From: Alphaproteobacteria bacterium
GTDB lineage: Bacteria > Pseudomonadota > Alphaproteobacteria > RF32 > CAG-239
Direction: 5' to 3'
Length of the DNA stretch: 64,000 nucleotides
Assembly (NCBI GenBank): GCA_048463395.1
Contig: DBFWPL010000002.1
Coordinates: 24,098 to 88,097 of the forward strand
The position numbers and the translations under genes are program-made. Shown one piece after another: positions 7,037 to 48,573 of this stretch. Position 1 is the stretch's first letter. Every line of letters begins with the position of its first letter. The notes under the pieces are model-generated. The model saw nothing but the letters and a program-made list of their open reading frames with translations. It searched no databases and was not told where the DNA came from.

Positions 7037-8641
7037 ATGATAAGAGTAAACGGAATTAAGGCAGATTTAGATGCCGATATGGCAGCGTTAAAAGAAATTG
7101 TTTCCATGAAAACGGGATTGGCTCCGGAGTATATTCTGGATATAAAAGTTGCAAAACGTTCCATTGACGCCAGAAACAAAACCAACGTGCATTTTGTGTA
7201 TTCTCTGGATATGACGGTAGACGGGGATGAGGACTATATCTCTGCCATCTTGGCATGGAAAGATGTGGAGCTGATTAAAAATACCGGAGATTTGGTGATT
7301 TCGAAACCTCTTAAACCGGTTAAGCTTCGGCCGGTCATTGCCGGAACGGGGCCGGCGGGAATGCTTGCCGGATTGGCTTTGGCGGAAGCCGGTTTAAATC
7401 CGATTTTATTAGAGCGGGGAAAAGAGGTTTCGGAGCGGAGAAAAGACGTCGAAATGTTTTGGGTGACGGGTAACTTGAAACCGGAGTCAAACGTGCAATT
7501 CGGAGAAGGCGGAGCCGGAACTTTCTCTGACGGAAAGTTAATGACGGGCGTTAAAAAAGACCGATATATGAAGAAAGTTTTGCAAGAATTTGCGGAAGCG
7601 GGAGCTCCCGAGGAAATTCTTTATCTGGCTAAGCCTCATATCGGAACAGACAATTTGACAGCGATGGTAAAAAATATCCGGCGGAAAATTATTTCCCTGG
7701 GCGGGGAATATCGTTTTGGGCATAAACTTGACGGTTTGGTTGTGGAAAATGACAGATTAAAGGCGGTTAAAGTCAGCGTTATCGACGGAGAGAGTTATGA
7801 GTTGCCGTGCGAAAGGCTGATTTTGGCAGTGGGGCACAGTGCCAGAGACACGTTTGAGATGTTGTATTCCGCCGGTGTTAAAATCGAACAAAAGCCGTTT
7901 TCGGTCGGAGCCAGAATAGAACACCGCCAATATATGATAGACGAATCACAATACGGTCGTTTTGCCGGTCATCCCAAGCTCGGAGCGGCGGATTATAAGC
8001 TGGCGGTGCATTTGCCGAACGGGCGTTCCGCTTACACTTTTTGTATGTGTCCGGGCGGGCAGGTGATTGCCGCAGCCTCTGAAGAAGGCGGTGTGGTTAC
8101 CAACGGAATGAGCGAGTTTGCCAGAAAGAAAGTCAATGCCAATTCGGCTTTGCTGGTTGGGATAACACCGGAGGATTTTGGCTCAAAGCACCCTTTGGCG
8201 GGAATGTATTTTCAGCGTAAAATAGAAGAAACGGCTTTTCGTGTCGGCGGCGGAAATTATCATGCTCCGGCTCAGTTGGCGGGAGATTTTCTTAAAAATA
8301 AGGAATCGGAAGATTGGAAAAATGTGGAGCCGTCTTATAATCCGAGGGTTCAGTTTACCAATTTGGCTTATGTTTTACCGGAATATGTGGTTGATACCAT
8401 GCGGGTTGCTCTTGTGGAGATGGACAGGAAACTTCGGGGATTTGCCTCGTATGACGCAGTTTTAACCGGACCGGAAACCAGAAGTTCTTCTCCGGTCAGA
8501 ATTGTTCGGGATGATACCTTGCAAAGCAATATCAAGGGATTGTATCCATGCGGGGAAGGGGCCGGATATGCCGGCGGAATTTCCAGTGCGGCAATCGACG
8601 GTTTGAAGGCGGCCTTACAAGTAGTGGAAAGCTTGGTTTAA
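7037..8641 (+). CDS. FAD-dependent dehydrogenase (uncharacterised NAD(FAD)-utilising family)
   Basis: N-terminal ferredoxin-like domain plus dinucleotide-binding motif VIAGTGPAGMLAGLALAEAG. C-terminal GEGAGYAGGI. Confidence 0.7.
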   Translation: MIRVNGIKADLDADMAALKEIVSMKTGLAPEYILDIKVAKRSIDARNKTNVHFVYSLDMTVDGDEDYISAILAWKDVELIKNTGDLVISKPLKPVKLRPVIAGTGPAGMLAGLALAEAGLNPILLERGKEVSERRKDVEMFWVTGNLKPESNVQFGEGGAGTFSDGKLMTGVKKDRYMKKVLQEFAEAGAPEEILYLAKPHIGTDNLTAMVKNIRRKIISLGGEYRFGHKLDGLVVENDRLKAVKVSVIDGESYELPCERLILAVGHSARDTFEMLYSAGVKIEQKPFSVGARIEHRQYMIDESQYGRFAGHPKLGAADYKLAVHLPNGRSAYTFCMCPGGQVIAAASEEGGVVTNGMSEFARKKVNANSALLVGITPEDFGSKHPLAGMYFQRKIEETAFRVGGGNYHAPAQLAGDFLKNKESEDWKNVEPSYNPRVQFTNLAYVLPEYVVDTMRVALVEMDRKLRGFASYDAVLTGPETRSSSPVRIVRDDTLQSNIKGLYPCGEGAGYAGGISSAAIDGLKAALQVVESLV

Positions 8642-8705
8642 TTGTTTGCATAAAATTATCAGCTTGGTAATATGATTACAGAAAAATAACGGAAAATAGG
8701 GACTG

Positions 8706-10010
8706 ATGATGAAAGTTGCAATTATTGGGACGGGATATGTCGGACTTCCGACGGGTGTCGGGCTGGCAGAACTCGGAAACAAAGTTGTCTGTGTTGATAA
8801 AATCGCCGAGAAGATAGATTCCTTAAACAGCGGAAAAATCACAATTTATGAAGACGGAATGGAAGAACTTTTTCAGAAGAATCTGAAAAAAGGCAGTATT
8901 TCGTTTACAACGGATATGGAAACTGCCGTTAAAGATGCTGATTTGGTCATGATTGCGGTGGGGACGCCTCCGCATCCGGAAACCAAAGAAGCCGATTTGC
9001 GGTATATTTATGCGGCGGCTGAAGAGTTGGCTCAATATTTGACAGGATATACCGTTGTTGCGACAAAATCGACAGTTCCGGTCGGAACCGGAGACGAGGT
9101 GGAAGCCATTATCAAGAGAGTTAATCCGAATGCCAATTGTGATGTCGTGTCTTTGCCGGAGTTTTTGCGGGAAGGTTTTGCCATTCATGATTTTTTCAAT
9201 CCGGACAGAATAGTTATCGGTGCCAACACGGCGAAAGCTCAGGAACTCCTTTTGAGTTTGTACAAACCGTTTAAGGGAAAAACAGAGTTTTTGCTGGTCA
9301 ATCGTAAATCTTCGGAAACAATCAAATATGCCTCCAATGCCTTTTTGGCGATGAAGATTCATTATATTAACGAAATGGCGAATTTTTGTGAAAAAGCGGG
9401 TGCCGATATTAATGAAGTGGCGAAAGGTATGGGGTTAGATACGCGTATCGGCAAGAAGTTTTTGAATGCGGGGCCGGGGTATGGCGGTTCATGTTTCCCG
9501 AAAGATACCAACGCTATGGCTCAGATGGGCAAGAAATACGGTGCTCGTCTTAACCTGATTGAAACGACCATTGCCAAAAACGATGAACGCAAGGTTGAAA
9601 TGGGACAGCGGGTTATTGACGCTGTTAAAGACTATAAAGACGGGAAAATCGCCGTTTTGGGGCTGGCGTTCAAAGGCGGTACGGATGACTGCCGCGAATC
9701 TCCGGCAATGGAGATTTTGAACGAGATTTTGCGTCATTCTTCCAATGTCGCGGTTTATGATCCGAAAGCCATGGAAAATGCCCGTAAGCTTATCGGCGAC
9801 AAGGTTGTTTATGCCGCAGATGCTTATGAAGCCTGCAAGTCTGCGGATATTTTGGTTATTCTGACCGAGTGGGAAGAGTTCAAGCAGCTTGATTTGGTTA
9901 AGCTTAAGCAGATTATGCGGCATGCCAGAATTATGGATATGCGGAATATGCTTAGTCCGAAAGATGTGCGGAACAATGGTTTTGTATACAGCTGTATAGG
10001 GATGAAATAA
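8706..10010 (+). CDS. ugd: UDP-glucose 6-dehydrogenase
   Basis: VAIIGTGYVGLPTG Rossmann motif, catalytic GGSCFPKD motif, C-terminal UDP-binding domain. Confidence 0.85.
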   Translation: MMKVAIIGTGYVGLPTGVGLAELGNKVVCVDKIAEKIDSLNSGKITIYEDGMEELFQKNLKKGSISFTTDMETAVKDADLVMIAVGTPPHPETKEADLRYIYAAAEELAQYLTGYTVVATKSTVPVGTGDEVEAIIKRVNPNANCDVVSLPEFLREGFAIHDFFNPDRIVIGANTAKAQELLLSLYKPFKGKTEFLLVNRKSSETIKYASNAFLAMKIHYINEMANFCEKAGADINEVAKGMGLDTRIGKKFLNAGPGYGGSCFPKDTNAMAQMGKKYGARLNLIETTIAKNDERKVEMGQRVIDAVKDYKDGKIAVLGLAFKGGTDDCRESPAMEILNEILRHSSNVAVYDPKAMENARKLIGDKVVYAADAYEACKSADILVILTEWEEFKQLDLVKLKQIMRHARIMDMRNMLSPKDVRNNGFVYSCIGMK

Positions 10011-11004: not shown

Positions 11005-11362
11005 CATTATATGGGTAAGTTTGTTTGATTTCTGCGACTTTTTGGCGGCGGAGTTCCAATAGTTGAGAAATTTCGGCTTCAATATCCGGTGTGGAAATTT
11101 CATCCCGTAAACGGTTTATTTCCAAAGTCAGGCAGTCGGTTTCCATGGCGTAAGCACGTGAGCGGAGAATACGTATTTCTTCATTGCTTAATGTTGGTTT
11201 GGGCGGCAGAAATCCGGATAAATAAAATCTTCCGTCGCCGTTGGTTTCAACTTCCTGTTCCGTAAAGCCTGTGTTTAAGAAATAAATAGTATCAGGGTTT
11301 TCTCCGGCGGCGATACAGACTTCTTTAGTTTGTTGATTGATTATTTTGCTCAGTTTCTTCAT
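11000..11362 (-). CDS. phage tail-fibre assembly chaperone-like protein
   Basis: 120 aa. C-terminal ...LTLEINRLRDEISTPDIEAEISQLLELRRQKVAEIKQTYP resembles Tfa-type tail-fibre assembly proteins. It sits immediately downstream of, and overlapping, a tail-fibre-like gene. Confidence 0.4.
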   Translation of the reverse strand: MKKLSKIINQQTKEVCIAAGENPDTIYFLNTGFTEQEVETNGDGRFYLSGFLPPKPTLSNEEIRILRSRAYAMETDCLTLEINRLRDEISTPDIEAEISQLLELRRQKVAEIKQTYPYNA

Positions 11363-12329
11363 GTTTGCTTCCTTTCAAAGGGAAAAAAGTGTATAAGGGG
11401 TTATAACTGCTTAAGCCGGACCAGCTGATGACATCTCCCGTTCCGACCCAGACATCACGAGTTCTTGTAACGGAAACGCTTGGCATTTCGTCAAAAACAA
11501 TTCGGGTACCGTTGACGGTAACGTTAATTGCGGTTACGATTGCACCGCCCTGAAGGTTAATCATTCCCGGCTCTTGAGCCGTAAACGGGCTGGTTATGGA
11601 ATAACCGCGGGTATAGTCTGGAATGCCTAATTCAACGATGGTTGTTTTGGCTTCGGTTGTTAAATTGGCGGCGTTGTTATCCGCTTTGGCGGCGATTTGT
11701 TCTTCCAATTCGGGAAGAATTGTATCCATGTCTTCTTTGGTGTTGCGGATTTCTTCCAGATAAGTTTGTGTTTGCTGCAGAATTTTTGAATTGGTTTCCG
11801 AAGCTTCAAGAACGACGGAAATGTTTTTTTCCAAGTCGTTTAGTCTGAAAGAAGAGTTTTGCAGTTCTGTTTCATCATCACTCCAGACAATAGCTTTGCC
11901 GGCTTCCGGCATTGGCAGGCTGACGTCCATTTGTGTTGGGGCAGAAGGCGGAAAAGTTACCGTGCGTCCGATAAGGTCTTCAAGCTGCTCCATGCAGGCA
12001 AGCTGATAGTCAAATTCAGAGTTTACTTTGGAGCTCATAAACGGTCCGACTTCTTTGAAGTTGGTAGTTCTTTTAAATGGAATGCTGCGATACAGCGTGA
12101 TAACGGTTCCTTCTGCCGGCGGGGTATCAAAAATAACGGTACCGCCGTTGATGTCCGGAGATGAGCTCATGATAACGGAATAACCGTTTTCCAAGAGTTT
12201 GTTGTCCAGATATATTTTAACATCATCGGGGTTGAAAATCGGAAAATGGAAATAATATTCGGACCGGGTGCCGTCGGCAATAAGGCGTAAACGGGGTTTG
12301 ACGCTGCCGGAATCTTGAGGATTGGACAT
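11325..12329 (-). CDS. T7-type tail fibre-like protein
   Basis: N-terminus ...LIADGTRSEYYFHFPIFNPDDVKIYLDNKLLENGYSVI matches the pattern of the T7 gp17 N-terminal tail-attachment domain (DGSNRDFNIPFEYL...VVVTLIG...TDYRF). A central coiled-coil-like segment and a beta-rich C-terminus follow. GGAGA lies 5 nt before the second ATG (12329); the track start at 12422 is probably too long. Confidence 0.5.
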   Translation of the reverse strand: MSNPQDSGSVKPRLRLIADGTRSEYYFHFPIFNPDDVKIYLDNKLLENGYSVIMSSSPDINGGTVIFDTPPAEGTVITLYRSIPFKRTTNFKEVGPFMSSKVNSEFDYQLACMEQLEDLIGRTVTFPPSAPTQMDVSLPMPEAGKAIVWSDDETELQNSSFRLNDLEKNISVVLEASETNSKILQQTQTYLEEIRNTKEDMDTILPELEEQIAAKADNNAANLTTEAKTTIVELGIPDYTRGYSITSPFTAQEPGMINLQGGAIVTAINVTVNGTRIVFDEMPSVSVTRTRDVWVGTGDVISWSGLSSYNPLYTFFPLKGSKHEETEQNNQSTN

Positions 12330-12509
12330 TTCTTTCTCCATTGTTGTTAAGTTGAACAATCGAGAAGATAAACAAATAATAGTGGCAATTGTTCTTGTAT
12401 AATATTTTTTAGAAAAAGTCAAGGAATAAATTCCTATTTTATACGGTTGACTTTTGAATTATGATGATTACTATCTAATTTAGTTTTTAATTTATGAGGA
12501 GATTTGAAT

Positions 12510-13300: not shown

Positions 13301-14029
13301 TTAAGGGAGTATGCCAACGCAAATGTGTGGAAATTTCATTTGAGATACTGCGGTCATTTGATAGTTATTGACCATGTTGTAGGGCGTTCCTCCCTTGAGC
13401 CAGATAGAAGCTGATTGTGTTCCTCCTCCGAATGTATATCCATCACTACTTATAGAAATTAAGTTTAAATTTTTAACAATTGGTGAGGTGCTGGTTGCAG
13501 TTTTTAAATTAGCTATCATGCTATATTTGTCTTTTAGCAGTTGGGCCTCTTCAAGGCTAGGCAGATGTCCGGTACAGAGATAGTTTGGTGCTGTGTTGAT
13601 GGCGTGGGCAATACTTGCACATTTATATTGACAGAATGTACTGTTATAACTTTCCGGGGTGCCGTTTCCTTCCAGTAGAACTAATTTGGTAGAGGCATTT
13701 ACCACTATACCGATAGCCTGTTTATCGGGTAAAGCTGTTGTCGGTCGGCTCCATGTGCCGTCTTTGTATACGATGTCTCCATCTTGCAGGGGAATGTTTT
13801 GAGCCAAAAATTCATCTCTGCTGAGTGATGTTCCGCAAGATATTTTACTTTTATCAAAAGGACATTTCAATGTTTTTAGGCCGACACATTGTGCTTCAGT
13901 CATTGTGTATCCTAATTCTTCACAAGAAGGAGGAGTGTCACAGGTTTGGGCGGAAGCTGTTGAGGCGGCGAAGGAGAAAGCGAGTATTGAAAGGCTAACT
14001 CCCCATATATTTCTAAAATTATCAGTCAT
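13301..14029 (-). CDS. cysteine-rich secreted protein (hypothetical)
   Basis: Signal peptide MTDNFRNIWGVSLSILAFSFAASTASA, then Cys-rich region with a CxxxGYT motif. Shares motifs with the upstream gene. Confidence 0.5.
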   Translation of the reverse strand: MTDNFRNIWGVSLSILAFSFAASTASAQTCDTPPSCEELGYTMTEAQCVGLKTLKCPFDKSKISCGTSLSRDEFLAQNIPLQDGDIVYKDGTWSRPTTALPDKQAIGIVVNASTKLVLLEGNGTPESYNSTFCQYKCASIAHAINTAPNYLCTGHLPSLEEAQLLKDKYSMIANLKTATSTSPIVKNLNLISISSDGYTFGGGTQSASIWLKGGTPYNMVNNYQMTAVSQMKFPHICVGILP

Positions 14030-14044
14030 AATCTTTCTCCTTGT

Positions 14045-14998
14045 TTATTTAGTTATAGGTTTCATCCAACATTTATACCAAGAGCAGGTATCAATGTCGG
14101 TGTATCCGGTTGCACATCCGGTAATGTAGTATTTGGAAGAGCATTTCTCAAAAGAGCAGGTGTACCCTGTCGGACAAGAGGTATAAGTACCGACATTCGG
14201 GCAGGATTTACATTTGTTGTATTTGGTAACGCCGTTTTCGGTACAGCTTTGTGCACCGGCTTCGTATCCCAAGTCGCATTCAATGAACTCAGCAGAGCAT
14301 GAGCAGCCGTTCTTTGAAGCGTTTACAACATAAGGGTATTCACAAGATTTACAGATATTTTTCGGGTAGAAATATGAAGTTAAATTCTGATTGCTGCGGC
14401 AGTAGTTGTATGCTTCCACGATATTAGAGCGGTAATCCTGTTCAGAGATGTATTCGTTTTCAGCGGAACAAGGGGTTAGAGAGCTATCGGTACATCGGCA
14501 AGCGTAATAAGTACCGGATTTATCGGAACATGTTTCGGTTTGGGCAAGTTTTCCGCAGGTTGAAAGTCTGTTGCTTTCGGTAACGGTATAGTAAGTTGTA
14601 TCGCACAAACAGGCTTTAAAGTATTTATTATCGTGAGGGCAGCTGGTTGTTTCGTCAGGGAAGGAGTTTTGAGGGCATTCCGTACGATTAAAGCCTTCGT
14701 CCCGGCATTGTAGGGAGGTGTCAATATTAGTATCGTTGTCAGAATAGTTAAGACCAAGACCATAGGCGTTTTTATCAGAGTTAACAATAGATCTGACAGC
14801 GGCGAGTTTGACGGTATTATCCGAGTTAAAAGAGGATATAGGCTTCAGCTCCATGGGTGTATGTGTGTGTGGTGTGTGTGTGTTTACCAGAGGGGTACCA
14901 GAGTAAGCCAAAGTCAGATGTTTAGCCTCGGAGACCTGAGGGTTGCCGGAGAGCAAGACGCAGGCAGAGGCCAGTAAAAAGAACTTAGTATCAGTCAT
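14045..14998 (-). CDS. cysteine-rich secreted protein (hypothetical), ~35 Cys
   Basis: Signal peptide MTDTKFFLLASACVLLSGNPQVSEA. HT(P) repeat encoded by an imperfect (GT)n tract. Repeated C-x-GYT motifs (CPTGYTC, GCATGYTD). Confidence 0.5.
   Translation of the reverse strand: MTDTKFFLLASACVLLSGNPQVSEAKHLTLAYSGTPLVNTHTPHTHTPMELKPISSFNSDNTVKLAAVRSIVNSDKNAYGLGLNYSDNDTNIDTSLQCRDEGFNRTECPQNSFPDETTSCPHDNKYFKACLCDTTYYTVTESNRLSTCGKLAQTETCSDKSGTYYACRCTDSSLTPCSAENEYISEQDYRSNIVEAYNYCRSNQNLTSYFYPKNICKSCEYPYVVNASKNGCSCSAEFIECDLGYEAGAQSCTENGVTKYNKCKSCPNVGTYTSCPTGYTCSFEKCSSKYYITGCATGYTDIDTCSWYKCWMKPITK
14856..14884. repeat. imperfect (GT)n/(CA)n dinucleotide tract inside the CDS (encodes THTPHTHTP)
   Basis: ggtgtatgtgtgtgtggtgtgtgtgtgtt as read in the sequence. 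Confidence 0.7.
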
Positions 14999-40843: not shown

Positions 40844-42847
40844 TTATCTTCCTCTTGATCTTGCCGCTAACAAAAGTTGAGGTGTCGGAACTTGAGATGT
40901 TTGGGGTTGTTGAGTTTGTCCGGTGTTAGTGGGAACTGTCTGTTCTTTCATATTTTTTTGTTTGTTCTCGGAGGTCCGTTGTTGTATTTTTTCTTTTTGT
41001 TTTTTGAGTCGTTCTTTGGTTTCCGGTTCAATACCTTTCAGTTCGGAGATGTCGGGAAGATTGCTCATCTCAATATTGTTTTCCAGGCAGGCAAGCATTA
41101 ATCTTGCTTTAAATTCCGGAGACTTGATGTCGCCGAAGATGATTTTTTGACCGGTTTTCTTAGCCAGCAGAGCCAAGTCGTTGAAGTCTTTATAATCAGG
41201 AATTTTCGGTTTTTTATCTTTGTCTTTGCTCCCTAAACTTATTCTGTTTTCAGAAGTGGCAACAATGTTAAGCTCCTCGCCGTTTTTGCGGGTTAATTTT
41301 GCTTTGTAATAAGGAGAGGTTTCATCTTCCGAGTATTGTGATTTTTCCTGTTTGGCAATATTTTGGTAGAATTGACGATAAGGTTTTGCAAATTCTTTAT
41401 CCGGGGTGGCTTGTGGTTTATTTTTCGGTTCAGAAATGTTTTCTTCGACTGAAATTTTAGAGTTTGGTTGTTTTTCTGTTTGACGGTCATTCAAATTCAA
41501 AGAAGAATCTGCTTCGCGAATTTTTTCCCGAAGCATCTCTTCGGCGTGCTTGATGGCGTCAAGGAGTGGTTCTCTCCATCCGGGTTTGTTTATGGTTTCA
41601 CTGGCGATTTTTCTTCTTTCTTGGCTTTTTTCAATAATCTCTCGGCTTTCTTCGTTAATGTCTACATCAACGGTTATCAATTTTGATAAATCTTTGGTTT
41701 CGGTTTGGGGATTATAAACCTCAAAACTATAGAACAGCGAACGTTGGCGGTTGTATTCTTCATGATTAACATCATCAGGTCGAGATGTGTAGCTTTGTGC
41801 ATGCTGAAGGCATAAATTTTCAAATTGCATATTATATTGTGCTGTATAGTTTTTGTTCCAGTTTTTTATACTGCTGTTTATCAGTAAGGTATGGTCAGAC
41901 AAGATTGATTTGATTTCTTCAGTTGTTTTTCCTTTTAAAAGGTTATCCAACCAAGGGTTGTCGTGTCTGACGGTGTTTAGCAAATCATCATTGTTATTTT
42001 TGAAATAGTTGTTCACAGCCTCTATTAATACGGCGACTTCTGCAGATCGTTCGTCTTCTACATTGATTCTGTAAATGTCTTCACAAGAGAGTTTTGGTGT
42101 TCCTTCTTTTATTTGGCGTCTGTCCCTGAGAAAATGATTTTTAAAATGTTTGCATTCATGAATAAAAGCACTATGCTTATGTTTTTGTTTTGCATGAGCC
42201 TGAGAAATTATTAAATAAAGATTCTGTTCCCGATAAGGAAGAGTTTTCAAGTAGTCGGGGTTGTTTTTGATTTTATTTTTTATATCCAGATATTTTTTGA
42301 AATCTTCCTTTTTAAAAAGATATCGGGGCATTTTGAAATTCATCAGGAGAGACTCGGAGTCTGCATAAGCAGAACCACCAAGATAATCATCATTTTTATT
42401 GATAATTTTTCTGTCTTTATCGAAGTAGTCCAAATTTCCGTCTTGATCAAGTTCCAAATACATATCTCGTATATCGGCCTCAATGGTGTAATTGAGTTTT
42501 TTCATCATTGGAGGAATTTCATTGTCCGGAACCGGTTTATAATCAAACAGAGCAACATAATCTCCGATTTTTTCGACCTGAGGAAAATCAGGCAGATGGC
42601 TTAAGTCGTTTCTAAAAGGTTTTGTGTCAGGAAAAGTTTGTGGAGGCAGTTCGTGATTAAGAAAATAGGTTAGATAGTTATTTAAATCCGTAAATTCATT
42701 TTTTGACATTTTATCAAGGAAATCCGAGCGAGATAACTTAGAGTATTTCTCTTTTTTTTCTTGAGCTTCAGCGGGATCATTAACAACAAGAAAAAATCCG
42801 GTTTCCGTGAGGACGGTGCGTTCAATGAGAGGGTTGGTTTCAGACAT
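40844..42847 (-). CDS. large low-complexity K/E/N-rich hypothetical protein (effector-like), 667 aa
   Basis: No signal peptide and no TM segments. Charged, disordered C-terminal third ending in ...TQQPQTSQVPTPQLLLAARSRGR. Followed by a very AT-rich 300-bp upstream region. Confidence 0.5.
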   Translation of the reverse strand: MSETNPLIERTVLTETGFFLVVNDPAEAQEKKEKYSKLSRSDFLDKMSKNEFTDLNNYLTYFLNHELPPQTFPDTKPFRNDLSHLPDFPQVEKIGDYVALFDYKPVPDNEIPPMMKKLNYTIEADIRDMYLELDQDGNLDYFDKDRKIINKNDDYLGGSAYADSESLLMNFKMPRYLFKKEDFKKYLDIKNKIKNNPDYLKTLPYREQNLYLIISQAHAKQKHKHSAFIHECKHFKNHFLRDRRQIKEGTPKLSCEDIYRINVEDERSAEVAVLIEAVNNYFKNNNDDLLNTVRHDNPWLDNLLKGKTTEEIKSILSDHTLLINSSIKNWNKNYTAQYNMQFENLCLQHAQSYTSRPDDVNHEEYNRQRSLFYSFEVYNPQTETKDLSKLITVDVDINEESREIIEKSQERRKIASETINKPGWREPLLDAIKHAEEMLREKIREADSSLNLNDRQTEKQPNSKISVEENISEPKNKPQATPDKEFAKPYRQFYQNIAKQEKSQYSEDETSPYYKAKLTRKNGEELNIVATSENRISLGSKDKDKKPKIPDYKDFNDLALLAKKTGQKIIFGDIKSPEFKARLMLACLENNIEMSNLPDISELKGIEPETKERLKKQKEKIQQRTSENKQKNMKEQTVPTNTGQTQQPQTSQVPTPQLLLAARSRGR

Positions 42848-45223: not shown

Positions 45224-45298
45224 GCGGGCGTAGCTCAGGGGTAGAGCGCAACCTTGCCAAGGTTGATGTCGAGGGTTCGAATCCCTTCACCCGCTCCA
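45224..45298 (+). tRNA. tRNA-Gly (anticodon GCC)
   Basis: Manual fold: acceptor gcgggcg/cacccgc (one C:A mismatch at 6:67), D-arm gctc-aggggta-gagc, anticodon arm caacc-ttGCCaa-ggttg, T-arm gaggg-ttcgaat-ccctt, encoded CCA. Confidence 0.85.
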
Positions 45299-45300
45299 TA

Positions 45301-45328
45301 AAAAAACCTCCTTTAGGGAGGTTTTTTT
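45301..45328 (+). terminator. terminator hairpin after tRNA-Gly
   Basis: aaaaaacctcctttagggaggttttttt. Confidence 0.7.
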
Positions 45329-45330
45329 AT

Positions 45331-45476
45331 GGAATTGAGGGGGAACGATGAGAACCCGAACAGAGGGTTCGGAGCGGATAGTTGGCGAGCACGATTTTAA
45401 GAAGTGCGAGGTTTACGTCGCGAAAGGGACCCATTGGCAGTGCCGATGGGAATTTACAATCCCTTCACCCGCTCCA
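45331..45476 (+). repeat. tRNA-linked structured element, copy 1
   Basis: Leader hairpin gaaccc-gaacaga-gggttc, then gagggttcg (tRNA-Gly T-stem 5' half plus first 4 nt of T-loop). A ~92-nt core follows: gagcggatagttggcgagcacgattttaagaagtgcgaggtttacgtcgcgaaagggacccattggcagtgccgatgggaatttac. It ends in aatcccttcacccgctcca, identical to tRNA-Gly from T-loop nt 58 through CCA. A near-identical copy of the tRNA terminator (45477-45510) follows. Confidence 0.7.
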
Positions 45477-45630
45477 TTAAAAAAGACCTCCTTTAGGGAG
45501 GTTTTTTTGTAAGGTTAATTCATGCTCTCTTTTGGGGAGTTTTGTTGTATTAGGGGAAGGATGTTCCCTTGATAAATTTGTTTGAGGGATTATTTTTATG
45601 CCATAACCTCTCTAAGCGAAAGTTTTAAGA

Positions 45631-47192: not shown

Positions 47193-47233
47193 TCCTTGAT
47201 AAATGTGTCAATTGTTATTAAAACTATCTGTCA

Positions 47234-47325
47234 TGGAGAGATGGCAGAGTGGTCGAATGCGGTTGACTCGAAATCAATTGTACTCTTTACGGGTACCGGG
47301 AGTTCGAATCTCCCTCTCTCCGCCA
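47234..47325 (+). tRNA. tRNA-Ser (anticodon CGA)
   Basis: Manual fold: acceptor ggagaga/tctctcc, D-arm gca-gagtggtcgaa-tgc, anticodon arm gttga-ctCGAaa-tcaat, long variable arm, T-arm gggag-ttcgaat-ctccc, discriminator G, encoded CCA. Confidence 0.85.
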
Positions 47326-47327
47326 TT

Positions 47328-47368
47328 TATAACAAAGCCCTCCCTTGTGGGGGGCTTTGTTATAAATG
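47328..47368 (+). terminator. terminator hairpin after tRNA-Ser
   Basis: aacaaagccctcccttgtggggggctttgttataaa. Confidence 0.6.
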
Positions 47369-47369
47369 A

Positions 47370-47513
47370 TGAGGAAGAGTGGAATTTGAACTCCCGGTGA
47401 GGAGTTCGGAGCAGATAGTTGGCGAGCACGATTTTAAGAAGTGCGAGGCTTACGATGCGAAAGGGCCCCATTGGTTTTGCCAATGGGAATTTACAATCTC
47501 CCTCTCTCCGCCA
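47370..47513 (+). repeat. tRNA-linked structured element, copy 2
   Basis: Leader hairpin gaactcc-cggtga-ggagttc, then ggagttcg (tRNA-Ser T-stem 5' half plus ttcg). Core is ~90% identical to copy 1 (gagcagatagttggcgagcacgattttaagaagtgcgaggcttacgatgcgaaagggccccattggttttgccaatgggaatttac). It ends in aatctccctctctccgcca, identical to tRNA-Ser from T-loop nt 58 through CCA. A terminator-like hairpin (47514-47550) follows. Confidence 0.7.
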
Positions 47514-47698
47514 TAACAAAAGCCACCTGAAAAGGTGGCTTTTGTTATGGCGGAGGACTGCTCAGCTTCGGATATATCCTTGCTTTGCAGAGGGAGACAA
47601 GTTTTTCTAAACTCACTTAACAGCTCTTGCTGTTTCGTTTGTTAATAAAAACTTTGTGATACGATAAAAAAAGATGACGTTAAGTCATCTTTTTTATC

Positions 47699-47716
47699 TA
47701 TCCCCTCTCTCCGATT
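47699..47716 (+). repeat. third fragment resembling the tRNA-Ser 3' end (cccctctctccg), preceded by a terminator hairpin
   Basis: atctatcccctctctccgattt versus tRNA-Ser aatctccctctctccgcca. Upstream hairpin agatgacgttaagtcatct plus T6 (47670-47697). Confidence 0.4.
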
Positions 47717-47748
47717 TATAATGAAAAAGAATGAGTGGTAAGCTTATG

Positions 47749-48573
47749 CTATTTTAATTTGCCGTATTCTTCATCAGAGACGGCTTCCAGCCATTCGTTA
47801 GAAGTTTCTTCACCGTCTAATTCAAATGCTAAATGTGAAAACCAAGAATCAGGAGCTGCTCCGTGCCAGTGTTTTGTATTTGCCGGAATATGAATGACAG
47901 TTCCCTCTTTAATTTCAACAGGTTCTTTTCCCCACTCCTGATAGTAACCACGTCCGCCGATGCCAATCAGCATTTGTCCTCCGCCTGATTTTGCGTGGTG
48001 TATGTGCCAGTTATTGCGGCATTTCGGTTCAAATGTTACGTTAAAAAACTTAATCTGTTCGGTTGAAATCGGAGCCAGATAACTTTGCCCGATAAAATAT
48101 TTGGCATAAGCATTGTTTGGTTCTCCGATAGGGAACATAATTGTTTGAGCGTATTTATCTTTTTCGCTCATTGCCGGAGTATCTTCATTCCAAATATCTT
48201 TGGCAAGGCGGAATACGGCCCATGCTTTTGGCCAGCCGGCGTAAAAAGCGGTATGGGTGATAATCGCAGCTATTTCAGCTTTGCTGACGCCGTTGTTTTT
48301 GGCATTTTGCAGATGATGTGTCAGTGATGAATCGGTAATTCCCATCGACATCAGAGAAACAACCGTGATAATTGAGCGGGTCTTGACATCAATGTCTTGA
48401 TTATTCCAGTTTTCGCCAAATAAAATATCATCATTATAATGGGCAAAATCAGGAGCAAAATCCCCGAGTTGGGTTCTGCCTGCCGTCTGCGTAATTTTTT
48501 CTGCCATAACATTACCTCCATAAGTTAACAAACACGTTGTCAGCAACAAAACTTTAGATAAATTTTTCATCAA
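47749..48573 (-). CDS. secreted carboxymuconolactone decarboxylase-family (AhpD-like) domain fused to a cupin domain
   Basis: Signal peptide. An AhpD/CMD-like helical region (…HTAFYAGWPKAW…), then a cupin beta-barrel (…WHIHHAKSGGGQMLIG…, …GTVIHIPANTKHWHGAAP…). Confidence 0.55.
   Translation of the reverse strand: MMKNLSKVLLLTTCLLTYGGNVMAEKITQTAGRTQLGDFAPDFAHYNDDILFGENWNNQDIDVKTRSIITVVSLMSMGITDSSLTHHLQNAKNNGVSKAEIAAIITHTAFYAGWPKAWAVFRLAKDIWNEDTPAMSEKDKYAQTIMFPIGEPNNAYAKYFIGQSYLAPISTEQIKFFNVTFEPKCRNNWHIHHAKSGGGQMLIGIGGRGYYQEWGKEPVEIKEGTVIHIPANTKHWHGAAPDSWFSHLAFELDGEETSNEWLEAVSDEEYGKLK

Follow-up and report, generated by a model that had tools for sequence, protein, structure and literature searches.

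A 64,000-nt stretch of an alphaproteobacterial contig (hereafter the window, in whose coordinates positions are given unless a contig is named) contains two copies of an 86-nt core, which we call body A, one behind a tRNA-Gly(GCC) gene and one behind a tRNA-Ser(CGA) gene, and each copy is embedded in pieces of the tRNA that precedes it. The best explanation of the copy behind tRNA-Ser is that it belongs to one module of a lineage-specific family of gene-less cassettes situated directly downstream of tRNA genes, and such a module fits best as an unusual and very small form of integration and accretion at tRNA genes. That the modules behave like something that recombines or moves is supported by their polymorphic copy number, their age-ordered arrays, and the closeness of the Gly and Ser copies to each other. 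The modules may be integrative cassettes bounded by attachment (att) sites, or the scars of such cassettes, that have accumulated at tRNA genes and were moved in trans, a reading that we hold tentatively and judge to be a little short of evenly probable. When mobile elements integrate into tRNA genes, partial copies of the 3' part of the tRNA (attR) stay behind (PMC9897764), and integrase-less, att-bounded cis-mobilizable elements (CIMEs) accrete in tandem (PMC5704250).

Body A and its tRNA-derived flanks in the window

Both tRNA genes (tRNA-Gly, 45224-45298; tRNA-Ser, 47235-47325) were called by ARAGORN and by Rfam. Body A occupies 45372-45457 (copy 1) and 47409-47494 (copy 2), and the aligned copies agree at 77 of 86 positions (89.5%). 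A 24-mer common to both occurs exactly twice in the window, against zero expected, and a covariance model of body A run with cmsearch gave two matches in the window, with E values of ~1e-26 to 1e-27. Copy 2 is preceded by GGAGTTCG (47401-47408), an exact copy of tRNA-Ser gene positions 65-72, and followed by AATCTCCCTCTCTCCGCCA (47495-47513), which matches positions 73-91 at 19 of 19 nt. Copy 1 lies between GAGGGTTCG (45363-45371) and AATCCCTTCACCCGCTCCA (45458-45476), both of them exact copies of tRNA-Gly. For both copies, the left flank (8 or 9 nt) and the right flank (19 nt) join seamlessly in the cognate tRNA at T-loop 57/58. The right flanks are therefore direct 19-nt repeats of the tRNA 3' ends (45280-45298 and 45458-45476 for Gly; 47307-47325 and 47495-47513 for Ser). 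Direct repeats of a tRNA 3' end, with an intact tRNA at one end, form an att-type boundary here and also on four contigs of relatives described below (L011, L014, L019, and L027).

The full layout of a module locus reads tRNA, terminator, inverted tRNA 3' half, direct T-stem fragment, body, exact tail, terminator, and a short inverted piece. Modules measure ~180 to 190 bp, with a body of 80 to 110 nt and a tail made up of the exact last 12 to 20 nt of the tRNA. The features of the two loci in the window are listed here with the basis of each.

45224-45298 (+): tRNA-Gly(GCC), intact, CCA encoded, source of the module 1 flanks (ARAGORN; Rfam tRNA, 65.6 bits)
45296-45333 (+): terminator hairpin T1, its stem beginning in the CCA end (CCATAAAAAAACCTCC / GGAGGTTTTTTTATGG) (sequence; DNA fold)
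45330-45362 (+): inverted, degenerate tRNA-Gly 3' half, containing the leader left arm gaaccc at 45352-45357 (sequence; 93% conserved in L003/L005)
45363-45371 (+): direct T-stem 5' strand plus TTCG (GAGGGTTCG, tRNA positions 48-56), leader right arm (exact-match map)
45372-45457 (+): body A copy 1, 86 nt (alignment; cmsearch E=5e-26)
45458-45476 (+): exact 19-nt repeat of the tRNA-Gly 3' end, A58 to CCA (exact-match map)
45477-45510 (+): terminator T2, a near-duplicate of T1 (sequence)
47235-47325 (+): tRNA-Ser(CGA), intact, CCA encoded (ARAGORN; Rfam)
47295-47399 (+): long imperfect palindrome spanning the tRNA-Ser 3' half, the terminator, and the inverted copy (fold z=-13.5; exact 11-mer)
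47401-47408 (+): direct T-stem 5' fragment GGAGTTCG, leader right arm (exact-match map)
47409-47494 (+): body A copy 2, 86 nt (alignment; fold; cmsearch E=1.3e-27)
47495-47513 (+): exact 19-nt repeat of the tRNA-Ser 3' end (exact-match map)
47506-47555 (+): terminator palindrome with 22-bp arms (sequence; fold)
47575-47750 (+): segment with inverted AGAGGGAGA (47589-47597), a terminator, and the decayed tail CCCTCTCTCCG (47703-47713) followed by ATTTATAA (sequence; relatives)

Much of the sequence between tRNA and body is palindromic. The reverse complement of 47356-47399, CACCGGGAGTTCAAATTCCACTCTTCCTCATCATTTAT, aligned with tRNA-Ser and its trailer, TACCGGGAGTTCGAATCTCCCTCTCTCCGCCATTTAT, is an inverted, degenerate copy of the 3' half, and an exact inverted 11-mer of that half, GAACTCCCGGT, stands at 47388-47398. 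Folded as a single strand, the tRNA-Ser 3' half, its terminator, and the inverted copy form a single hairpin with arms of ~50 bp (z=-13.5); the Gly locus carries a smaller version of this palindrome (z=-7.2, DNA fold). The second Ser terminator is likewise a palindrome, with 22-bp arms (47506-47555), and takes in the last 8 nt of the tRNA-Ser-like tail, which pair with the inverted copy TGGCGGAG at 47548-47555. A third, decayed tRNA-Ser tail lies at ~47703 (47703-47713), inside a segment of ~175 nt that is missing from the relatives L004 and L005; this segment (47575-47750) is what remains of an older module lying more distally. The segment has AGCTT on either side, and a terminator-like hairpin is situated at ~47668-47697.

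Two hairpins deserve separate description. The internal hairpin of body A (CCCATTGG...CCRATGGG) has a stem of 8 to 9 bp, and between the copies its loop is altered and a T-G pair becomes T-A. The leader hairpin is made by gaaccc/gggttc at the Gly locus (45352-57 / 45365-70) and by gaactcc/ggagttc at the Ser locus (47388-94 / 47401-07), and it marks where the inverted copy of the tRNA 3' half, to which its left arm belongs, meets the short direct repeat of the T-stem 5' strand.

A first-pass annotation of this DNA had described a core recurring at ~90% behind tRNA-Ser within the T-arm and acceptor sequence of the cognate tRNA, an internal hairpin whose 8-bp stem is kept while its loop changes and a t-g pair becomes t-a, and a terminator-like hairpin after copy 2. 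Our analysis recovered each of these: the repeated unit is real, the flanks are exact for Ser as well as Gly, and the terminator is larger than had been claimed. The annotation had also set aside the open reading frames (ORFs) at 47203-47400 (+) and 47274-47519 (-); both overlap the tRNA-Ser gene and the non-coding module and are spurious. It had further read the leader hairpin as covarying with the host tRNA. The sequences are as described; however, because each arm was copied from the tRNA, the left in inverted and the right in direct orientation, the apparent covariation does not constitute independent evidence for a functional RNA.

Module arrays and their decay in relatives, and probable exchange between loci

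Relatives were reached via the neighbouring nitroreductase gene. L001 (ENA ERZ14651210) has an identical nitroreductase and matches the window in neighbour genes and gene order. The nitroreductases of L003/L009 (one NCBI metagenome-assembled genome [MAG] contig, titled "uncultured Azospirillum sp.") and of the Logan contigs L004 to L007 show ~81% amino-acid identity to that of the window. Behind tRNA-Gly, L001 carries two identical 180-bp units in tandem (8541-8900) where the window has one (45299-45510), and since the contigs are otherwise identical, copy number is polymorphic between strains. Behind tRNA-Ser, L003/L009 and L004 to L007 carry body A at 85 to 86% identity, with a decayed tail and a different leader. 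At the Gly locus, L003 (3703-3790) and L005 (618-700) keep the inverted leader at 93% identity to that of the window, and the body, the tail, the second terminator, and the next gene (GtrA) are missing; the residual GATTTGATTCCCC at this locus suggests an internal deletion.

More distant contigs carry other bodies in the same arrangement. L011 and L012 (~65% identity) have two units behind tRNA-Ser. In the proximal unit of L011 (unit a), which is extra relative to L005, GGGAGTTTGAA and a perfect 18/18 tail enclose an unrelated body, B, and the junction is at 58/59-59/60; the distal unit has a relative of body A followed by a tail that has decayed. L014 and L019/L020 share a third type of body, C, accompanied by an inverted copy of the T-arm (GATTTGAACCC); the tail measures 15 nt in L014 and 20 nt in L019/L020. 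In L019, the perfect tail of 19 to 20 nt is followed by a truncated second unit, which is extra material relative to L014. This truncated unit (inverted T-arm copy plus ~35 nt; L019 4051-4818, also in L020) runs into an HNH gene, placed at the body position and encoding a phage-type endonuclease of 206 aa. An HNH homologue, P0130 (41% identical), belongs to an ordinary prophage, beside terminase and DnaB genes (L025). Finally, contigs L027 to L029 (17405-17625; GCA_944392195.1 and GCA_964311575.1), from a non-syntenic lineage, show a matching layout behind tRNA-Glu(CTC). There, the inverted copy comes right after the terminator, the body is ~120 nt long and contains an internal terminator-like hairpin, and a 12-nt tail, 163 nt downstream, starts at position 65, outside the T-loop; the tail is followed by a terminator and inverted TGGTGAT, and the T-arm is not split.

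The layout was thus seen at all three tRNA loci open to inspection (Gly, Ser, and Glu). The tail repeat begins +160 to +180 nt past the tRNA end at 7 of 7 loci, in four or five lineages and with three tRNA types, and successive tails are spaced 171 to 204 nt apart. Arrays are graded by age, with an intact tail nearest the tRNA and a decayed one distal to it (L011, L019, and the window, 47495 versus ~47703). Terminators and bodies are found together in different array positions: the terminator ATACGCC...GGCGT accompanies body A in unit 1 of L005 and in unit 2 of L011, and the terminator of the window tRNA-Ser (AAAGCCCTCCCTTGT...) is the distal terminator in L005/L006. The ends of the left flanks differ among modules (TTCG, TTTG, CTCG, and GAA).

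A 1.3-kb intergenic region of L011, which has no tRNA gene, contains three remnants at 1900-2045; in order, these are a tRNA-Gly-like 3' end (CCCCTTCGCCCGCTCCA), the terminator of the window tRNA-Gly, and, immediately behind it, the end of body A fused to a Ser-type tail (GGAAATTTACAATCTCC). The region looks like a graveyard of units.

We next compared the modules with sites expected to be neutral. Four-fold degenerate sites were 61 to 75% identical (mostly 70 to 75%) between the window and L003/L005, giving a neutral value of ~72%, and the Ser orthologues of body A, at 85 to 86% in the same comparison, stand somewhat above it. Between L003 and L005, the flanking genes are 99% identical and 68 of 68 four-fold sites of a flanking gene are the same, whereas the modules differ at 5 of 86 body positions and by a 26-nt indel in the leader. 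Between close strains, the modules therefore change faster than the synonymous sites of flanking genes. Purifying selection on the core, which had been considered because 85% identity contrasted with unalignable terminators, was dropped in view of the ~72% neutral identity; the terminator difference is uninformative on selection because the modules themselves differ.

Body A has probably also been exchanged between loci. The Gly copy of the window is 89.5% identical to the window Ser copy and 76.7% identical to the Ser copy of L005, and the two Ser copies are 86% identical to each other. Since the Gly copy is nearer to the Ser copy of its own genome than to that of L005, the window copies exchanged sequence after the species split. 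The exchanged tract ends where the two T-arms cease to match (GTTCG on the left, AATC on the right), and these edges of the sole sequence common to both window T-arms are also the 57/58 junction. An identical insertion point could therefore arise from exchange alone. The first-pass annotation had stressed this identity; it holds for both window copies and fails elsewhere, namely in L011 unit a (58/59-59/60) and in the tRNA-Glu module of L027 (position 65).

Proposed accretion by single crossover and competing accounts

How such arrays might form can be outlined as follows. A circle of ~180 nt, in the order tail, terminator, inverted copy, direct fragment, and body, would enter the tRNA gene by a single crossover at the T-loop or the 3' end. 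The incoming 3' end and terminator would regenerate the tRNA, the former 3' end would be shifted downstream, and repeated integration would build arrays whose youngest unit lies beside the tRNA. A single crossover of this kind would yield the layout, the tRNA regeneration, the age order of the arrays, and the linkage of terminator and body. The modules would then be miniature or decayed att-bounded elements resembling CIMEs and far smaller, a site-specific recombinase encoded elsewhere would act on them in trans, and a recent exchange of body A between the Ser and Gly modules would have stayed inside the T-loop sequence that they share. Speculatively, the inverted and direct tRNA copies, together with a plus-strand fold, may form a folded single-strand attachment site. 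A broader version of this idea strikes us as unlikely: the inverted and direct copies would adopt, on one strand, a structure that imitates the T-arm/acceptor duplex, serving as a folded attachment site from which a trans-acting recombinase builds integron-like arrays at many tRNA genes, or, alternatively, the arrays would encode RNAs that mimic tRNA ends.

Several observations weigh against accreted cassettes. No integrase or recombinase is encoded in the module or in the 64-kb window, where integrase, transposase, TnpB, reverse transcriptase, and HNH genes are all absent and no recombinase domain occurs among ORFs of at least 180 aa; nor is there an integrase or recombinase among the genes called within 3 to 10 kb of the relatives' arrays. 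At ~180 bp, the modules are orders of magnitude below any described CIME or island, and their uniform size across unrelated bodies is unaccounted for by random decay. An ordinary attP or attR has neither the direct T-stem fragment on the left nor the long inverted 3'-half copy, and neither an excised circle nor an empty site was seen in the contigs examined. Unequal crossing-over between the repeated tail and terminator could by itself give the polymorphism of one versus two units, the near-identity of the tRNA-Gly terminators T1 and T2 fits local duplication equally well, and the comparison covers three tRNA loci in all.

The body A fold bears on whether the modules are instead transcribed. 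The fold, tested on five body A sequences, comprises three nested helices (3-5/48-50, 10-15/40-45, and 18-21/33-36 in body numbering) and a 9-bp hairpin (59-67/71-79). In these sequences, 89% of cells pair, compared to 34 to 43% with slid 3' partners. Pairs changed on both sides number 4, versus 1.7 in shuffles, with 24 of 500 shuffles reaching 4 for this set of five sequences. Column 5:48 pairs G with C in the Gly copy and A with U in the Ser copies, and one hairpin pair flips from A-U to U-A. G-U pairs make up 20 of 100 cells, and the reverse strand would pair ~69% of cells. A G-U cell becomes a mismatch on the minus strand, which assigns the fold to the plus strand, either in RNA or in single-stranded DNA. 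Support for a plus-strand fold with compensatory changes is modest.

A small RNA, or a read-through product of the tRNA, could accordingly be proposed in which the module mimics the neighbouring tRNA 3' half and is handled by factors that process or bind tRNA; the antisense leader would pair with the sense tail to make an acceptor-like stem with an NCCA overhang, and the body would be a structured insert in the T-loop. The strand specificity of the fold agrees with this proposal, as do the intrinsic terminator that closes each module, whole-unit folds in which leader pairs with tail, the 19/19 match of fresh-unit tails to the tRNA, the 93% conservation of the Gly inverted leader between the window and L003 (against ~72% at neutral sites), and an architecture and size kept across lineages. 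On the other hand, although a module has its own terminator and read-through from the tRNA is possible, no sigma-70-like promoter was found upstream. A search with Rfam 15 (gathering and E-value thresholds; window and relatives) matched the tRNAs and returned no family for any body type, and bodies A, B, C, and the Glu type lack detectable homology. Units decay, are truncated, or have lost their interior in relatives; close strains differ more in the units than at synonymous sites; the units stand in arrays and tandem copies, which is unusual for a functional small RNA; and the covariation, drawn from five sequences, is marginal against shuffles. Taken together, we consider a small RNA improbable, though worth keeping in view.

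These results also bear on the first-pass view of a functional RNA or recombination structure "rather than a decaying relic." The plus-strand fold, some compensatory change, and the recombining behaviour lend the first part some support. The second was too strong, given that distal copies and copies in relatives are decayed, truncated, or emptied of their interior, and that L003 and L005 differ at 5/86 positions and by the 26-nt indel.

Another possibility is that the 86-nt core alone is the mobile unit, a non-autonomous insertion element similar to a miniature inverted-repeat transposable element (MITE) that targets T-loops and has landed in displaced tRNA 3' fragments. It could be of IS200/IS605 type, with subterminal hairpins and a right end plus 19-nt flank resembling an omega-RNA and its guide, or of IS110 type, with target-matching guides. 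In both window copies the flanks adjoin each other in the tRNA and no target sequence is duplicated, one body occurs in two different tRNA contexts, the hairpins, set in by ~17 nt on the left and 7 nt on the right, fold on one strand only, and L011 unit a, with a different body, also splits the T-loop. An insertion element of this kind nevertheless seems doubtful to us. With the covariance model, body A was found nowhere outside cognate-tRNA sites in the window or other loci (~224 kb in total), and every copy is directly behind its cognate tRNA. Blastn of the unit against plasmid and phage collections gave no match. An exact 22-mer, GAGCACGATTTTAAGAAGTGCG, which includes a position variable in relatives, had 0 matches in genome, metagenome, and viral collections; an exact 20-mer, CGATTTTAAGAAGTGCGAGG, matched the syntenic MAG contig (L003/L009) and one chance coding sequence, with 0 matches in the viral collection. 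A degenerate viral scan produced three chance matches in coding sequence with no tRNA nearby, and bodies B and C had 0 matches in the viral collection. Moreover, a displaced fragment without a body, the empty target, was not seen; the two hairpins are dissimilar, unlike IS200/IS605 ends; the variable left-flank ends leave no fixed tetra- or pentanucleotide; the tRNA-Glu module has no split T-arm; the window encodes no transposase or TnpB; and 57/58 is the boundary of the sequence common to both T-arms, so that gene conversion gives the same picture. The chance metagenome match of the 20-mer (L010 4526-4545) falls in a coding sequence translating to YDFKKCEETGRIDNF, which we take to be a GH127-like motif.

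Less probable again is an origin in which the modules have neither a function nor a mobility of their own: template switching during replication, together with gene conversion, would act at the long palindromes of the terminators that follow tRNA genes and leave an inverted and a direct duplication with templated filler, later homogenised between neighbouring loci through T-loop microhomology. Direct, inverted, and direct tRNA 3' pieces centred on a terminator hairpin are what two switches would produce, local change and indel rates are very high, and mismatches between inverted copy and tRNA have no strand bias. The terminator loop behind the Ser module is also inverted between two samples of a single species, reading TACAAGG in L005 (~2160-2185) and CCTTGTA in L006 (~1575-1593) with identical stems. 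Against such an origin, several lineages share the layout and a similar period, with three tRNA types and unrelated bodies among them, the linkage of terminator and body is kept across lineages, the fold of body A is specific to one strand and shows compensatory changes, and exact 19/19 tails stand beside degenerate inverted copies.

Other candidates were tried and rejected. A coding role of body A fails on copy differences that are non-conservative in its sole open frame. A ribozyme (hammerhead GAUGAG, HDV-like, or group II ends GAGCG...AC) had no model match, and core motifs are missing. Neither homology among bodies A, B, C, and the Glu type nor a tRNA origin of the bodies in either orientation rose above shuffled controls. 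A tRNA intron (group I, group II, or archaeal bulge-helix-bulge) is excluded by a 5' exon of only 8 to 9 nt, an 86-nt length that is too short, and the lack of any intron-family match. A transfer-messenger RNA (tmRNA) or tRNA-like gene was rejected, as ARAGORN and the Rfam tRNA/tmRNA models detected nothing in the window beyond the two canonical tRNAs. An integron cassette (attC) was rejected because the T-loop GTTCGAA does not fit GTTRRRY and the window has no integrase. The HNH endonuclease was discarded as a mobility enzyme because it is confined to one lineage and its relative P0130 sits in an ordinary prophage.

Relation to known systems and genomic context

Phages and genomic islands classically insert at tRNA genes, and the 3' fragments that they displace are usually regarded as simple scars. 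Here the scars are organised: they form modules of a uniform ~180 bp in which palindromic copies of the tRNA accompany a folded insert, and the modules are ordered by age and polymorphic between near-identical strains. If mobile, the modules would be the smallest att-bounded integrative units described and would offer a handle on how attachment sites are re-programmed between tRNAs; if transcribed, they would form a family of tRNA-end mimics. Either way, they generate spurious ORFs and pseudo-tRNA fragments, and annotation pipelines should mask them.

The closest parallels are the attL/attR scars and CIMEs of tRNA-integrating phages, integrative and conjugative elements, and integrative and mobilizable elements, in which, as in the modules, the inserted DNA is delimited by a directly repeated tRNA 3' end and the tRNA is regenerated. 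Also shared are arrays at one tRNA, decayed distal repeats, strain-variable content, and prophage debris, here an HNH gene in one array (PMC9897764; PMC5704250). In contrast to these systems, the modules are 171 to 204 bp long, gene-less, and uniform in size despite unrelated bodies. They also contain an inverted tRNA 3' half, types A and B add a T-stem 5' fragment beyond the body, and there is no nearby integrase.

Integron attC cassettes and the CTXphi attP(+) hairpin are folded single-strand attachment sites. Like the modules, they have imperfect inverted repeats that can fold on one strand and mimic the target-site duplex, small, often non-coding units stand in ordered arrays with the newest at the entry site, and the structure is specific to one strand. 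Unlike them, the modules have no GTTRRRY/RYYYAAC boxes, dif-like site, or adjacent intI or xer gene; their target is a tRNA gene, and the 86-nt branch takes the place of the central region.

MITEs and palindrome-associated transposable elements (PATEs) of the IS200/IS605 group, with their omega-RNA, resemble the modules as small non-coding inserts with no target duplication and with strand-specific subterminal hairpins; the structured right end of an omega-RNA has its counterpart in modules, where ~19 nt of target-identical sequence and a terminator follow. However, the modules are not dispersed, their hairpins are dissimilar, and no constant target tetranucleotide exists; tnpA and tnpB were not seen in the window, and tRNA-specific inverted copies lie outside the insert.

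With tRNA-like small RNAs (tmRNA, bacterial YrlA, and viral tRNA-like structures), the modules share a possible acceptor-like stem ending in the NCCA of the neighbour, a helix derived from the T-arm, and a large insert. They differ in being missed by ARAGORN and Rfam, in having no equivalent of the D or anticodon arm, in their unconserved bodies, and in that no promoter was found.

The window itself is ordinary chromosome, encoding GroEL, HtpG, BipA, LeuRS, LptE, HolA, and sugar-nucleotide genes. Several of its long ORFs have no Pfam match and encode 667, 365, 242, and 317 aa (40844-42847 (-), 11325-12422 (-), and 13301-14998 (-)), and its base composition is AT-rich.

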